This document shows, one piece after another, positions 49,718-58,131 of a DNA stretch of 64,000 nucleotides. The stretch's first letter is position 1, and each line of letters starts with the position of its first letter. The DNA is from an uncultured bacterium. GTDB lineage: Bacteria > Krumholzibacteriota > Krumholzibacteriia > LZORAL124-64-63. The stretch is from NCBI GenBank assembly GCA_963732385.1, contig CAVSZB010000007.1:1184001-1248000 (forward strand), read 5' to 3'. A program made the position numbers and the translations under genes. The notes under the pieces were generated by a model, which was given only the letters and a program-made list of their open reading frames with translations, made no database searches and was not told where the DNA came from.

Positions 49718-49751
49718 AGAGGCCGCCCCTCCCCGCGGATGGGCGGCCTCT
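49718..49751. terminator. hairpin between convergent genes
   Basis: 11-bp stem AGAGGCCGCCC/GGGCGGCCTCT. Confidence 0.65.
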
Positions 49752-49784: not shown

Positions 49785-50783
49785 TCAGATCTTGTCCATC
49801 ATCTCAAGCAGGTCGACCACCCGGCTGGAGTAACCCCACTCGTTGTCGTACCACGACAGCGTCTTGAGCATGGTGCCGTCGATGACCTGCGTGTACTCCG
49901 CATCGAAGATACACGAGTGCGGATCGCCCACGATGTCGCTCGACACCAGGGGATCCTCGCTGTAGCGCAGGACATTGCGCAGGCGCGGGGTGGCGGCCGC
50001 GGCCCGCACCGCCTCGTTCACCTGCTGCACCGTGACCTGCCTCTTCATGATCGTCACCAGATCGACCACCGAGCCGTCGGGAATCGGCACGCGGATGGCC
50101 ATGCCGTCGAGCTTTCCCTTCAACTGCGGCAGCACCTTGCCCACGGCGCGCGCGGCGCCGGTGGTCGTGGGGATCGTGTTCTCCGCCGCCGCGCGGCTGC
50201 GCCGCCAGTCGGAGTGCGGCACGTCCGCGAGGCGCTGGTCATTCGTGTAGGCATGCACCGTGGTCATCATGCCGTGCTCGATGCCGAACTCCTTGTCCAG
50301 GACGTAGGCGAGCGGCGCCAGGCAGTTCGTGGTGCACGAGGCGTTGGAGACGATCTTGTGCTCCGGCCTGAGCGCCTCGTTGTTGACCCCGACGACGATC
50401 GTGGCGTCGATCTCGTCCTTCGCCGGCACCGTCAGCAGGACCTTCCGGGCGCCCGCCGCGATGTGGACCGCGATCTGGTCCTTCTTGCGGAAGCGGCCGG
50501 TCGCTTCGACGACGAAATCCACGCCCAGCTCCTTCCACGGCAGCTGCGCCACCTCGGGAATGGCCGTCATCTTCACGGTCTGATGCCGCGTCTTCATGAT
50601 GTCGCCCGTCACCTCGGCGATGCCCTTGAACTGTCCCATGACCGTGTCGTGCCGGAGCAGATAGGCCAGCGCCAGCGGGTCGGCGATGTCGTTGACGGCC
50701 ACGACCTCCACACCGGGACGATCGTTGAGCAGCCGGAACACCGCGCGGCCAATGCGGCCGAAGCCGTTGATTGCGATCTTCAT
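49785..50783 (-). CDS. gap: type I glyceraldehyde-3-phosphate dehydrogenase
   Basis: 'INGFGRIGR', catalytic 'SNASCTTNCLAP', 'TVHAYT', 'WYDNEWGY'. Confidence 0.95.
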   Translation of the reverse strand: MKIAINGFGRIGRAVFRLLNDRPGVEVVAVNDIADPLALAYLLRHDTVMGQFKGIAEVTGDIMKTRHQTVKMTAIPEVAQLPWKELGVDFVVEATGRFRKKDQIAVHIAAGARKVLLTVPAKDEIDATIVVGVNNEALRPEHKIVSNASCTTNCLAPLAYVLDKEFGIEHGMMTTVHAYTNDQRLADVPHSDWRRSRAAAENTIPTTTGAARAVGKVLPQLKGKLDGMAIRVPIPDGSVVDLVTIMKRQVTVQQVNEAVRAAAATPRLRNVLRYSEDPLVSSDIVGDPHSCIFDAEYTQVIDGTMLKTLSWYDNEWGYSSRVVDLLEMMDKI

Positions 50784-51805
50784 CGCGCCACCTCCTGGGC
50801 CTCGATGTGCTTCGCCATCAGCCGGGCCAGTTCGAGCAGCCGATATGCGTAACCCCAGCCGTTGTCGTACCAGATGATGCACTTGATCATGCCGTTGCCC
50901 AGCGACATGGTCGCCTGCGCGTCGAACACCCCGGAGGCGGAATTGCCGATCACGTCGCTCGACACGATCGGTTCCTCCGTGTAGCCGATCAGCCCCTTGA
51001 ACCGCCCTTCCGACGCCTCGCGCACGATCGTGTTGACCTCGGGCGCCGTGAGCGGCTTGGCCAGTTCCAGATTCAGATCGATCACCGAACCGGCCTGCAC
51101 CGGCACGTTGAGCGCCATTCCCGACAGCCGGCCCTTCAGTTCGGGCAGCAGGGCCTGCACCGCGTGCGGCGCCCAGGACTTGTTGGGGATGATGTTCTGC
51201 GCCGCCGAACGGCTCCAGCGCAGGCCCGGCTTGGCCGTGTCGCTGAGCTGCTGGTCGCTGGTGTAGGCATGCACGGTCGTCATGAAGGCGCGCCGCACCC
51301 CCACCCCTTCGTGCAGGATCTTCAGCAGCAGCGCGAGCGCGTGCACGGAACTGCTGCCGGCGGAAACGATGTGATCGGTCGGCTTCAGCTCCTCGAGATT
51401 CACGCCGTTGATGACCACCCGGTCGATGTCGTCCTGCGGAGGCGTGGAGAGGATGACCCGGCGCGCGCCGGCCTCGATGTGCTTCTCGAGCTCCGCGCGA
51501 CGACGGAACCGGCCGGTCGACTCGATCACGATGTCCGCGCCGAGCACGTCCCACGGCACCTCGCCCGGCTGCGAGCCGCGCAACACCCGCGCGCGCTGCC
51601 GGCCCGCGACGATGTAGCGTCCCTCGCGCCGCACGTCGGCCGCGAATAGCCCCTCCACAGTGCTGAACTTCAGCAGATAGGCCAGCGAGTCGATGTCGGC
51701 GACGTCGCTCACCGCCCGGAACTCGATGTCGGGCTGATCGTAGGCGATACGGAACATGTTCCGCCCCAGCCTGCCGAAGCCCATGATTCCAATCCTGACC
51801 GCCAT
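50780..51805 (-). CDS. GAPDH paralogue lacking the catalytic Cys
   Basis: 'GFGRLGR', 'ESTG', 'TVHAYT', 'WYDNGWGY', but 'SAGSSSVHALA' in place of SNASCTTNCLA. Confidence 0.85.
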   Translation of the reverse strand: MAVRIGIMGFGRLGRNMFRIAYDQPDIEFRAVSDVADIDSLAYLLKFSTVEGLFAADVRREGRYIVAGRQRARVLRGSQPGEVPWDVLGADIVIESTGRFRRRAELEKHIEAGARRVILSTPPQDDIDRVVINGVNLEELKPTDHIVSAGSSSVHALALLLKILHEGVGVRRAFMTTVHAYTSDQQLSDTAKPGLRWSRSAAQNIIPNKSWAPHAVQALLPELKGRLSGMALNVPVQAGSVIDLNLELAKPLTAPEVNTIVREASEGRFKGLIGYTEEPIVSSDVIGNSASGVFDAQATMSLGNGMIKCIIWYDNGWGYAYRLLELARLMAKHIEAQEVAR

Positions 51806-51997
51806 CTTGACCTTCCTTTGCTCGCAGGGGGAAACGAGCCGAGCGCCGCAACCTTACGCGCCCTGCCGCCCCCCGCCAATCAGTTCTTGCGCCCCGCCGC
51901 GGACTGGCGGACAGCCCCTCCGCGGTCCATATTGTCCGCCCGCACGGCGGTCACCATCCGCGCCGGATACGCCGCGCCGACCCCCAGGAGACGCTTC

Positions 51998-52330
51998 ATG
52001 CCGACCTACGAATACGAATGCCTCAAATGCAGCCATACCTTCGAGGAATTCAAGGAGATCACCGCCCCCCCCCGCGCCCGCTGTCCCCGCTGCCGGGGTA
52101 AAGTCCGGCGCCTCATCAGCGGCGGCGCCGGCTTCGTTTTCAAGGGTTCCGGCTGGTACGCCACCGACGCACGCAGCAAGAGGCCCAGACCGGCGTCCAA
52201 GCAAGAAGAGGGCCCGGCCACGACCCCGGCCGTCGACACCACGCCGCCCCCCGCCGCCGAACCGTCCAAGCCCCCCCCGACGGAGACCGCGCCACCGAAG
52301 GCAGGCAAGGAACCCCGCCGGAAATCCTGA
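51998..52330 (+). CDS. FmdB-family zinc-ribbon protein
   Basis: 'MPTYEYECLKC.H.FE...CPRC', 'FKGSGWYATD'. Confidence 0.9.
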   Translation: MPTYEYECLKCSHTFEEFKEITAPPRARCPRCRGKVRRLISGGAGFVFKGSGWYATDARSKRPRPASKQEEGPATTPAVDTTPPPAAEPSKPPPTETAPPKAGKEPRRKS

Positions 52331-52454
52331 TCCCCCACCGATTCCCGTGCCGCGCACGGACCACGCTCATCAGGCCGGGGCCGCGCGGGTGTTGCCGCCC
52401 CGCCCGGCTCGTGATAGCGTCCGCCGCCCACGCCCCCCAGATCAGGAGTTCACC

Positions 52455-54125
52455 ATGACCCCCGAAAGCGTTCAGGTCGAAATCGACGGCAGCCAGACCA
52501 CCGCCACGCCGGGGCATTCCCTGCACGACGTGCTGCGAGCCAACGGCGGCGAGGACATCTGGGGCGACAATCCGGTGGTGCTGGCGACCGTGGACGGCCG
52601 CCGGGTCTGCCTCGCGGAGCCACTCTGGGGTGGCGAACGGGTCTCGCTGCTGCGCCGCGCCGATCCGGAGTCGCACTCCACGAGCGTGCGCACGCTCTGC
52701 TCCCTGCTGGCCGTCGCCGCCGAACAGCTTTTTCCCGCCGGGCGGCTGGTGATCGACTTTGGCTACGGATCGGGCCTCTACTGCGAACTGGAAGGCGGGA
52801 CGTTGCTGACAGCGGACTGCCTGGCGCGCCTCGAGACCCGGATGCGGGAACTGGCGGCGCGGGACCTGCCGCTCACGCCCCGGGTCTACGGCCAGCGCGA
52901 ACTGCTGCGGCTGCTGTCCGGTTCGCGCCGCGAATTCAGCTTCCGCGCCGCCCGCTACGCCCGGCAGGATTCCCTCACGCTTTTCACCATGGAAGGATCG
53001 TCCCTCCTCTTCCAGGGACCGCAGCTGCCGAGCACCGGCAGCGTGCGCGCCTTCGCGCTGCGCCCCGAGCCGCCCGGTTTCATGCTGCTGCCGAGCCTCC
53101 CGGGCAGCCCCGACACGGTGACGGAATTCACGCCCCAGCCGAAGCTGCTCGAAACGATGCGCGGCTACTCCCGCTGGAGCGCCCAGCAGGGTTTTCCCGA
53201 TCTCGGTTCGCTCAATCGATTCATCGTGGAGGGACGCGCGGCCGAGGTGATCCATGTCGAGGAGGCGCGGCACGAGCAGACGCTCGTCTCCGCCGCCGTC
53301 CGCGCGACCGCGCTGCCGGACGATGGTCGCCTGATCCTGGTGGCCGGCCCCTCAAGTTCGGGCAAGACCAGTTTCGCCAAGCGCCTGGCGGTGCAGATGC
53401 GCGTGCTGGGCTTCACCCCGTCGGCCCTCTCGCTCGACGATTATTTCGTGCCACGCGACGCCACGCCGCGCGATGCGAACGGAGACTACGACTTCGAGGC
53501 CCTGGACTCGCTCCAGGTCGACCTCTTCAACACCCACCTGCAGGCGCTCCTGGCCGGCGAGGCGGTGCGGCTGCCCCGCTACGATTTCCACTCCGGCAGC
53601 AGCACCCTGCGCGACGAGACGTTCAGCATCCCGCACGGCCAGCCGCTGATCGTCGAGGGCATCCACGCCCTCAACCCCGAATTGACCGCCGCCATTGCCC
53701 AGAACCTGAAACTGCGGGTCTACGTCAGCGCGCTCTGCCACTACAACCTGGACGATCTTTCCTACGTGCCGACCCATTTGTCCCGCCTCTTCCGGCGCAT
53801 CGTCCGCGATGCCATGTTCCGCGGCTACACCGCCTCGCAGACGCTCGCGCGCTGGCCACAGGTCCGGGCCGGCGAGCAGAAGTGGATCTTCCCCTTCCAG
53901 CAGAACGCCGACATCTTCTTCAATGCCGGGCTGGCCTACGAACTGGGCGTTCTCAAGCTGTGGGCGGAGCCGCGGCTGGCGGCAGTGGAGCCGGATGACC
54001 AGAACTACGGGCGGGCCCGCAGCCTGCTGGAACTGCTCTCGCTGGTCCTGCCGATCGATGCGGGGCAGGTGCCGCCCATCTCGCTGTTGCGCGAGTTCAT
54101 CGGCGGCAGCGGCTTCCATTACTGA
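52455..54125 (+). CDS. nucleoside (uridine/PRK-type) kinase with ThrRS-like N-terminus
   Basis: TGS/ThrRS-like N-terminus; Walker A 'GPSSSGKTS', 'LDDYF', 'EGIHALN', 'REFIGGS'. Confidence 0.82.
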   Translation: MTPESVQVEIDGSQTTATPGHSLHDVLRANGGEDIWGDNPVVLATVDGRRVCLAEPLWGGERVSLLRRADPESHSTSVRTLCSLLAVAAEQLFPAGRLVIDFGYGSGLYCELEGGTLLTADCLARLETRMRELAARDLPLTPRVYGQRELLRLLSGSRREFSFRAARYARQDSLTLFTMEGSSLLFQGPQLPSTGSVRAFALRPEPPGFMLLPSLPGSPDTVTEFTPQPKLLETMRGYSRWSAQQGFPDLGSLNRFIVEGRAAEVIHVEEARHEQTLVSAAVRATALPDDGRLILVAGPSSSGKTSFAKRLAVQMRVLGFTPSALSLDDYFVPRDATPRDANGDYDFEALDSLQVDLFNTHLQALLAGEAVRLPRYDFHSGSSTLRDETFSIPHGQPLIVEGIHALNPELTAAIAQNLKLRVYVSALCHYNLDDLSYVPTHLSRLFRRIVRDAMFRGYTASQTLARWPQVRAGEQKWIFPFQQNADIFFNAGLAYELGVLKLWAEPRLAAVEPDDQNYGRARSLLELLSLVLPIDAGQVPPISLLREFIGGSGFHY

Positions 54126-56739: not shown

Positions 56740-56853
56740 GGAAGCCCGCGCAACGCTTTGAGCTTGCCCGGCGAAGCGCGATGGGATAACCTGCATGCCT
56801 GCGCCGACAACCTGCCGCGCACGCTCCAGCCACCCGGAAGGACAGGTCATCAG

Positions 56854-58131
56854 ATGAGCCACTCCTTGCGAAGCACCGACCGCCCGGTCGACCGGGCCGC
56901 CGTCCGAGCGGAGGTCAACGACGAACCGCTTTCCCTGCCGCCCCGCACAGGCACCCCCTGGGGAACTCTCTCCGCACGCGTCATCAGCGTGGTCAGCCGC
57001 AAGGGCGGGGTCGGGAAGACCACCTCGACGATCAACCTCGGCGCGACCTTCGCGCTCGCCGGCCATTCCGTGCTCCTGATCGGCACCGATCCGCAGTGCG
57101 GCATCTCGCGCAGCCTCGGGCGCGACAAGTACGATCTCGACAGCGGCCTGCTCGACGTATTCCAGGCTCACGTCCCGCTCAATCACCTGGCGTATCCGAC
57201 CGCGATCGATCACCTGCATTTCGTCACGCCCAACGTCTGGACGCTCGCCGAGGAGGAGGAATTCAAGCGCCTGCTGGAGCACGAATCCGACACCTTTCTG
57301 AGCGCCGTCGACCGGGCCCGCAACCTGTACGACACCATCCTCATCGACTGCCCGCCGGGGCTGGGCCCGGAATCCAGAGCCTCCCTGCTCGCCTCCGACA
57401 GCTACCTGGTGCCGGTGCAGGCGGAAGAGCTCTGTCGTGATTCCCTGGGACGTCTGCTGGCCTTCATCCAGAGCTTCCGCGACGAGACACACGCAGAGTC
57501 GAATCTCAGCGGCCAGGAGGCCGCCACCGCTCCTCCCGTCCTCGAAGGGCTGTTCCTGACGATGTCCAACCCGCGCACCCGGATGGGACGCCATGTGGCG
57601 GCGCGCGTGGCGGAGGAATACGGGCTCGACCTGTTCGCCGCCGCGATTCCGCGCACTGCGCGCCTGGCCGAGATGGCTTTGCGCGGCAAACCGGCGGTCA
57701 TCTACGACCGTCGCTCCGCCGGCAGCCGGGCCTACTTCGATCTGATGGACGAGATCATGGCCCGCTGGGACAGCCAGCGCGCCGCCGGTCAGGCTGAAGC
57801 GACCCGCGCCGCAGCGAAGCCGGGCAACGGCGGCGCCCACCACGACCGCGCCGCCAACTTGTTCGCGCTCGCCGCGGCCGCAGGGCTGTACCTGCCCGGC
57901 GGGCTCGGCCTGACCGCAGCGGACAACGACGCCGATTACGACGCCAATGACCAGGACAAAGCCGGCGTTGAAGCGGTCTGGGACGGTCTGCCCGGCGAGG
58001 GCGAGCCCGAAATGGTCTCCCTGGACGAGATGATCGAGAACGAGGAGGAGAGCCTGCTCGCCTCCGGCGATGAAGACTGGGAGGAGCGCCGCTGGGGCGA
58101 CGAAGCCGAACGCCAGGAACGCTTCCACTGA
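56854..58131 (+). CDS. orphan ParA/Soj-family ATPase with acidic C-terminal tail
   Basis: 'KGGVGKTT', 'DPQ', 'IDCPP', 'IPR...LAE'. Confidence 0.85.
   Translation: MSHSLRSTDRPVDRAAVRAEVNDEPLSLPPRTGTPWGTLSARVISVVSRKGGVGKTTSTINLGATFALAGHSVLLIGTDPQCGISRSLGRDKYDLDSGLLDVFQAHVPLNHLAYPTAIDHLHFVTPNVWTLAEEEEFKRLLEHESDTFLSAVDRARNLYDTILIDCPPGLGPESRASLLASDSYLVPVQAEELCRDSLGRLLAFIQSFRDETHAESNLSGQEAATAPPVLEGLFLTMSNPRTRMGRHVAARVAEEYGLDLFAAAIPRTARLAEMALRGKPAVIYDRRSAGSRAYFDLMDEIMARWDSQRAAGQAEATRAAAKPGNGGAHHDRAANLFALAAAAGLYLPGGLGLTAADNDADYDANDQDKAGVEAVWDGLPGEGEPEMVSLDEMIENEEESLLASGDEDWEERRWGDEAERQERFH

Follow-up and report, generated by a model that had tools for sequence, protein, structure and literature searches.

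Glyceraldehyde-3-phosphate dehydrogenase (GAPDH) forms a textbook homotetramer that binds nicotinamide adenine dinucleotide (NAD) cooperatively, and the unequal behavior of its four identical sites is an old question. The known type I GAPDHs are homotetramers of active subunits, and the GapB paralog of plants, which is active, regulates through a C-terminal extension derived from CP12. Catalysis requires Cys149, His176, the Ps site (Thr179, Arg195, and Arg231) and the Pi site (Ser148 and Thr208–Ala210), as set out in passages of two papers on these enzymes (PMC12041015, PMC9287727). Here we describe a gene pair, gapX-gap, from a window of 64,000 nucleotides (nt) of an uncultured member of the Krumholzibacteriia (assembly GCA_963732385.1, contig CAVSZB010000007.1, positions 1,184,001–1,248,000), in which a canonical gap gene follows a GAPDH-fold paralog (gapX) that lacks the catalytic cysteine and the phosphate-site residues. 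The pair is real and widespread. We consider GapX to be probably a non-catalytic subunit that joins the downstream-encoded Gap in one complex, most simply an X2Gap2 heterotetramer. Full-text searches, which left subscription journals largely uncovered, turned up no report of a gap gene coupled to a dead GAPDH. This window contributes a syntenic loss of gapX that is accompanied by a change in the S-loop of the partner, along with a staged decay of the GapX active site.

Residues lost and kept in GapX

An earlier note, made from the letters of this DNA, had described two tandem GAPDH-fold genes sharing an ATGA. Both minus-strand open reading frames (ORFs) are indeed intact and overlap as described (Table 1), and their products, GapX (P0001) and Gap (P0002), are 42% identical. 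The motifs that the note had read from the translations are all present in GapX (GFGRLGR, SAGSSSVHALA, TVHAYT, GLRWSRSAAQN, and WYDNG) and in its partner (SNASCTTNCLA, DWRRSRAAAEN, and WYDNE). The note was also right that GapX has lost both cysteines of this motif: Cys149 is a serine and the second cysteine is an alanine (residue numbers follow the usual GAPDH convention, mapped via alignment to the Geobacillus stearothermophilus chain). P0002 passes the type I GAPDH profile TIGR01534 with 423 bits (cut-off, 367.2), whereas P0001 scores 314 bits. The AlphaFold2 model of GapX has a predicted local distance difference test (pLDDT) score of 92.9 overall and of about 60 in the S-loop (residues 181–200), and matches structure 1npt with a Foldseek template modeling (TM) score of 0.94 and a root-mean-square deviation of 1.5 Å. 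The fold match and the loss of catalytic and phosphate-binding residues together suggest that the gapX product has the fold of a GAPDH but not its chemistry, and we infer that the protein is inactive.

We followed these residues in the window's subfamily (P0001 and its 120 best hits, n = 121) and family-wide in 122 GapX members. Both phosphate sites are altered, because asparagine occupies position 231 and tryptophan positions 195 and 209. Thr179 is kept in the Ps site; in the Pi site Ser148 is kept, as it is in 122 of the 122 members, and the canonical TTTGA reads NKSWA. Arg231 and the Thr206–Gly209 loop, together with Glu314, Asn6, and Asn31, are lost in essentially all GapX members (Asn31 is kept in one of the 122). 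P0001 retains the NAD-binding GxGxxGR, Asp32, Asn313, and Tyr317; given the changes at Asn6, Asn31, and Glu314, its affinity for NAD may differ. Seven residues are invariant in the whole family (Arg194, Arg197, Asp241, Asp282, Asp293, Lys306, and Trp310; 122/122), and we take them to be intersubunit contacts, an assumption for which literature searches gave no confirmation.

Of the residues that nearly all active GAPDHs share, GapX retains 2 of 14 in the active site, 6 of 17 in the NAD site, 17 of 30 in the interfaces, and 11 of 29 elsewhere, so that the active-site deficit (2/14 versus 34/76 at the other positions) is modestly significant (Fisher p 0.04). Conservation within GapX (44 representatives below 70% identity) is 0.64–0.71 in the P, R, and Q interface segments and 0.55 elsewhere, using interface ranges from a portion of PMC5119734 mapped approximately onto the GapX model. 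Furthermore, 11 alignment columns distinguish the partner clade from solo gaps, and 8 of them fall in the R or Q ranges, which hold 51 of the 332 residues (hypergeometric p 2e-5). GapX shares most of these columns. One of them, Ala185, occurs in none of the 90 outside representatives. The string LTVP was considered as a marker of paired Gap proteins and rejected, as solo gaps of the Marinimicrobia group outside the clade carry it too; these 17 LTVP-bearing solo genes are an outgroup and not further losses of gapX.

Distribution, ancestry, and loss of the gene pair

Scanning GTDB genomes for sequences that encode W[YF]DNGW[GA][YF] returned at least 120 matches. Among the 120 matches listed, 118 have a gap start directly downstream, another is cut off by a contig edge, and the last is a remnant; the match in Ca. 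Nitrotoga (L087) is the end of a reading frame interrupted by many stops, with no gene pair. The labels of the listed matches cover about nine phylum-level lineages: Eisenbacteria, Marinimicrobia, Acidobacteriota (mainly Thermoanaerobaculia), Desulfobacterales, Actinomycetota (Acidimicrobiia and Ca. Actinomarina), Planctomycetota, Bdellovibrionales, Myxococcota, and Krumholzibacteriia/Latescibacterota, with a few Gammaproteobacteria. The motif biases the GapX sample; pairs found without it (L258–L260, L282, L283, L288, and L289) have the same order and an upstream copy that is likewise Cys-less. Closer to the window, the pair is present in 18 of 40 relatives, and the named homologs nearest P0001 are labeled Krumholzibacteria or Latescibacterota. 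No cultured host appears among the 120 record titles listed or the named homolog matches. Databases annotate GapX proteins as ordinary GAPDH, and the ESM Atlas offers only generic GAPDH clusters. In a sample of Planctomycetota, 9 of 121 genomes have tandem pairs; four divergent upstream copies in this sample (L282, L283, L288, and L289) lack both the cysteine and WYDNGW, and their partner gaps have an unusual S-loop (LAD/LSD-WYHxDL). Three assemblies (G046, on C8 and C2; G049; and G267) hold two separate tandem pairs each, through duplication or bin contamination.

In 119 de-duplicated pairs the gapX-gap junction is −4 in 61 and −1 in 28, and all junctions lie within −8 to +88 nt. The genes overlap by 1–8 nt in 92 of them, in keeping with the coupling-type junction claimed in the earlier note, and a word resembling a Shine-Dalgarno sequence precedes the partner start in 100 (a loose pattern with no shuffle control). 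No third gene is conserved across phyla next to the pair, as the largest neighbor cluster (20/119) consists entirely of the window's family, and ArsJ is absent from the recurrent neighbors scanned. In acidobacterial lineages pfk (the L089 group, 9 loci) or pyk (the L063 group, 7 loci) follows the pair, rather than pgk-tpi. We also ran the test in reverse, checking each top-scoring partner-type gap for an adjacent upstream GAPDH-like hit by hit coordinates and score tiers. Such a neighbor is present at 23 of 23 partner-type gaps in the Marinimicrobia group (66 genomes sampled), 20 of 20 in the Thermoanaerobaculia group (55 genomes, one unpublished genome left out), 24 of 24 in the Acidimicrobiia group (56 genomes), and 10 of 10 in the Desulfosarcinaceae group (13 genomes). 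In place of the pair, most genomes of the first three groups carry a solo gap that belongs to another clade. A lone gapX was found in none of the lineages sampled.

GapX proteins form one clade (Shimodaira–Hasegawa support 99–100) that is sister to the partner-Gap clade, and the two together stand apart from solo gaps (support 98–99). When 119 library representatives of 50% clusters were added, the joint group received support of 87 and took in 12 other sequences; therefore, the exact outgroup of the pair clade is not settled. The gapX and gap subtrees have the same main groups, and their pairwise distances correlate (Spearman 0.72, 119 loci). As these phylogenies show, a single tandem duplication gave rise to the GapX and partner-Gap clades. 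Full-length GAPDH-like representatives without Cys149 also occur outside the GapX clade (P0301, P0317, P0360, and P0271), three of them outside the whole pair group, which suggests further independent families of GAPDH pseudoenzymes.

Purifying selection on gapX equals that on its active partner. The median ratio of nonsynonymous to synonymous substitution rates (dN/dS, Nei-Gojobori) is 0.12 for gapX and 0.13 for gap in 29 disjoint close pairs (32 minus 3 that were saturated), and between the window and a congener it is 0.12 and 0.16, respectively. These values bear out the earlier proposal of a maintained pseudoenzyme. Retention of the cysteine in close orthologs, which the note had named as evidence to the contrary, is seen in none of the 120 closest homologs. 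Because serine occupies position 149 in 121 of 121 members of the subfamily, neither chance nor sequencing error is a credible source of this residue. The portrayal of the upstream copy as Cys-less holds for the window's subfamily and not for the family as a whole, in which 29 of 122 members keep the cysteine.

The state of Cys149 changes seven times on a tree of 119 scored rows. Since no member among the 122 retains Arg231 or Glu314 (for Glu314 a partly circular count at loci found through the WYDNG-type motif) while Cys149 survives in 29, the simplest order that we infer, direction of each change included, has the phosphate sites lost first and Cys149 later in several lineages. The most decayed stage seen is a Ca. 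Multivorans-type lineage (L063, L065, L076, and L110) whose GapX also lacks His176 and Arg10 and has phenylalanine in place of the cysteine.

The window's own family also offers a natural deletion. Eleven of its solo gaps nest within the partner clade, and their exclusion from it is rejected by the approximately unbiased (AU) test (p 0.011, on 6 of the 11). The kinase gene found upstream of the window's pair precedes the solo gap in 10 of the 11 loci and, when a longer stretch is considered, in the eleventh as well; several of the loci also share the window's transporter and ElbB neighbors, with gapX absent, so that the synteny rests on these three genes. The solo gaps have lost Ala185, Val187, and Ser196 of the S-loop in 11 of 11 cases, the only signature columns lost completely, and position 196 is back to the alanine of the outgroup. 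In plastid GAPDH, S-loop residue 188 touches the cofactor of the R-related subunit, according to the part of the study cited here (PMC3728087). The S-loop change after the loss of gapX, a single event, fits a co-adaptation at the R interface. No additional independent losses were found in the Marinimicrobia, Thermoanaerobaculia, Acidimicrobiia, and Desulfosarcinaceae samples searched, and all of the 26 candidate solo genes placed in the tree fell outside the pair clade. A switch to NADP, prompted by the resemblance of the GapX S-loop (Thr/Ser-Ala at 187–188) to plastid Ala187/Ser188, was rejected: the partner has no equivalent of Arg77 and the motif is not family-wide.

At the locus itself, gapX and gap are the only GAPDH-family genes found by a search of the 96%-complete genome, and gap is the sole intact GAPDH gene found there. 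The gene stands outside any gap-pgk-tpi operon; the single pgk (G000:C7:690618-691757, minus strand) lies on this contig too, at a distance of about 540 kb. Neither a sigma-70 promoter nor an intrinsic terminator was called on the gene strand at the pair, and the terminator scan made no call at the hairpin listed in Table 1. The junction is spanned by a single contig from an RNA library of a 93%-identical relative (1648 nt with 118 differences, covering 50056–51703), which is no proof of one transcript, and the RNA contigs are unable to rank expression of the pair. The best holders among sequencing runs share just 0.21 of words, and therefore we make no habitat claim. Divergent from gapX on the plus strand lie a small zinc-ribbon (FmdB-like) ORF with a proline-rich tail (51998–52330) and, after it, a protein of the uridine-kinase/PRK family with a long N-terminal extension (about 52450–54125), a neighborhood conserved only in the window's family. 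Farther along the same strand (56758–58131) is a ParA-family ATPase whose long C-terminal extension, about 100 residues, is very acidic.

Table 1. Features of the gapX-gap locus, in window coordinates; residues carry GapX numbering, with counts for the window's subfamily (of 121) and family-wide (of 122).
Feature	Position	Strand	Basis or count
gapX, GAPDH-fold paralog without catalytic Cys and phosphate-site residues, 341 residues	50780..51805	-	profiles, alignment, model
gap, canonical type I GAPDH of the partner clade, 332 residues	49785..50783	-	profiles, genome search, trees
ATGA overlap of gapX stop and gap start	50780..50783	-	sequence
AGGAGGT, Shine-Dalgarno-like motif for gap, within the last gapX codons (QEVAR), 6 nt before ATG	50790..50796	-	sequence
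AAAGGAAGGT, Shine-Dalgarno-like motif for gapX	51810..51819	-	sequence
GC-rich 11-bp hairpin, 34 nt past gap stop, without T-run; possible 3' end structure	49718..49751	-	fold
Ser152 codon (AGT), at the position of catalytic Cys149	51350..51352	-	Ser 121/121; Cys 29/122
His179, catalytic His176, kept	51269..51271	-	121/121; 118/122
Trp197, replacing Ps-site Arg195	51215..51217	-	Trp 121/121; Arg 64/122
Trp211, replacing Pi-loop Gly209	51173..51175	-	Trp 120/121; Gly 5/122
Asn233, replacing phosphate-binding Arg231	51107..51109	-	Asn 121/121; Arg 0/122, Asn 111/122
Gly316, replacing Glu314 (WYDNG motif)	50858..50860	-	Gly 119/121; Glu 0/122 (partly circular, see text)

Proposed role of GapX and its alternatives

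We favor a role for GapX as a non-catalytic subunit because gene order and coupling-type junctions are invariant, selection on the two genes is equal, a single GapX clade is sister to the partner with correlated distances, active-site residues are lost more than others while seven residues are invariant, the markers of the partner clade concentrate in R and Q interfaces and are mostly shared by GapX, the loss of gapX is accompanied by an S-loop change in the partner, and no other strong GAPDH-domain hit was found in the source genome or in 28 of 50 further genomes with the pair. In the mechanism that we propose, translational coupling would yield GapX and Gap at a ratio of about 1:1 and the two proteins would share one tetramer. 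GapX, whose fold, dinucleotide-binding core, and interface-forming strands and loops are preserved, would help hold this tetramer together, and its S-loop and strand contacts would complete and tune the NAD site of the partner across the R interface. All glycolytic turnover would then take place in the Gap subunits, and the asymmetry seen as NAD-binding cooperativity in homotetrameric GAPDHs would become fixed by genes. More tentatively, and with rather less confidence than in co-assembly itself, we suggest that the roughly nine phylum-level lineages with the pair, including the abundant marine Marinimicrobia and Ca. Actinomarina, could carry out glycolysis with a genetically fixed, half-dead X2Gap2 in which the S-loop of the pseudoenzyme completes and tunes the active NAD site and the active subunit needs GapX unless its own S-loop re-adapts.

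Several observations count against this role. The retention of interface residues in GapX (17/30) is not significantly above that elsewhere (11/29; p 0.20); the same residues form the fold core, and a GapX homotetramer would conserve them as well. The interface signature shared with the partner may be plain inheritance from the gene before duplication, and correlated distances are expected for any co-inherited neighbors. Additional GAPDH-like hits are present in 22 of the 50 pair-bearing genomes and in 9 of 10 genomes of the Desulfosarcinaceae group. The loss of gapX with S-loop reversion is a single evolutionary event, and the loss lineage shows that a partner-type Gap can do without GapX. 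Furthermore, the partner has Val185 despite the presence of gapX in the four Multivorans-type loci, and at two loci (L271 and L290) gapX is apparently frameshifted beside an intact gap, through decay or assembly error. At another locus (L082) both genes are frameshifted, which indicates an assembly error.

GapX could instead form an oligomer of its own and do a non-catalytic job apart from Gap, such as binding NAD(H) or RNA or scaffolding, with co-expression as the only tie between the two. The near-invariance of Asp32, Glu94, Thr96/Gly97, Phe99, and Asn313 in the window's subfamily would suit such a homotetramer, which should conserve NAD-core residues along with its interfaces. We consider it unlikely, as it leaves unexplained why every lineage sampled retains the stop-start junction and the gene order, why no gapX is found alone, and why the S-loop of the partner changes when gapX is deleted. 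Nor do we give much weight to an enzyme with new chemistry, an unlikely scenario in which GapX is an NAD-dependent dehydrogenase that uses His176 as a base, and no thiol nucleophile, on a non-phosphorylated or bulkier substrate. A Cys149Ala mutant of GAPDH is said to have weak non-phosphorylating activity, for which a literature search gave no confirmation. His176 (118/122), Ser148, Asn313, and the Rossmann glycines are kept, with His176, Ser148, Asp32, and the glycines retained in the window's subfamily, where the pocket has invariant new residues (His152, Trp195, Trp209, Asn206, and Asn231). However, this pocket is not conserved family-wide: Ser, Cys, Asn, Ala, Phe, and Pro all occur at position 149, and positions 195 and 209 are highly variable. 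Moreover, the lineage without His176 and Arg10 remains coupled, and no substrate-specific gene accompanies the pair.

Conditional binding of GapX to Gap, as an inhibitor similar to CP12 or as a redox or NADH switch that poisons or releases active tetramers, strikes us as distinctly improbable. The diverged part of GapX is the tip of the S-loop (187–193), which lines the cofactor site of the neighboring subunit in other GAPDHs (PMC3728087). CP12 was not found in the source genome (G000, 96% complete), and a cysteine without phosphate sites, as in some lineages, could sense the redox state. Against a switch, fixed translational coupling is better suited to a constant subunit, the cysteine is dispensable in 93 of 122 members, and the variable C-terminal tails include no conserved regulatory extension. 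A decaying duplicate or a sequencing artefact is scarcely credible for gapX, even though a few copies elsewhere are frameshifted. We rejected recent decay and sequencing error on the loss of the cysteine common to 120 of 120 close homologs, the dN/dS of 0.12, and the monophyly of GapX across phyla.

If GapX is indeed a non-catalytic subunit of the Gap tetramer, a natural and widespread enzyme with two permanently dead subunits would make the asymmetry of GAPDH genetic and directly testable. The family preserves stages on the way from enzyme to pseudoenzyme, with phosphate sites lost in all members, the cysteine repeatedly, and the histidine in one lineage, and it includes a lineage that dropped the pair arrangement again. 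Metabolic models of many uncultured lineages count GapX proteins as enzymes.

Comparison with described GAPDH systems and heteromers

Like type I GAPDH (GapA, EC 1.2.1.12; 1GD1 of G. stearothermophilus), GapX has the two-domain fold, at 44% identity, and keeps the Rossmann motif, Asp32, Ser148, His176, and Asn313. Unlike it, GapX has no Cys149, Arg195, Arg231, Gly209, or Glu314, does not reach the family cut-off, and precedes an intact gap. The cysteine absent naturally from GapX was removed by engineering in the Cys149Ser/Ala mutants of the G. stearothermophilus enzyme (1NQ5 and 1NPT). Epd/GapB and the ArsJ-associated GAPDH resemble GapX as paralogs whose phosphate sites are altered or that serve a second role. 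GapX belongs to neither, scoring 258 bits for erythrose-4-phosphate dehydrogenase (Epd; TIGR01532/NF010058, cut-offs 530–539 bits) with no cysteine, and 268 bits for the ArsJ-associated family (NF033735, cut-off 450 bits); it is also below the cut-off for type II GAPDH. Epd retains the essential cysteine and histidine, according to a passage of PMC12041015.

The chloroplast A2B2 GAPDH of plants (GapA/GapB, PDB 2PKQ) is a GAPDH heterotetramer of two paralogs, the arrangement proposed here for GapX and Gap. In the GAPDH-CP12 system, regulation operates via the cleft between R-related subunits, and plant GapB's C-terminal extension is mentioned in the same excerpt (PMC3728087). GapX, unlike plant GapB, has neither the C-terminal extension nor the catalytic apparatus. 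As in an enzyme/pseudoenzyme pair, it is a paralog without catalytic residues yet under purifying selection. Such a pair is described for the benzaldehyde synthase of petunia, a Rossmann-fold α2β2 tetramer in which both assembly and the shape of the partner's pocket depend on a paralog that has lost catalysis, in the section of the report that we cite (PMC13418739). The petunia enzyme is eukaryotic and from the superfamily of short-chain dehydrogenases/reductases (SDR), and its heteromer is demonstrated where that of GapX is proposed; it serves as our working analogy for how a dead subunit could complete a living one.

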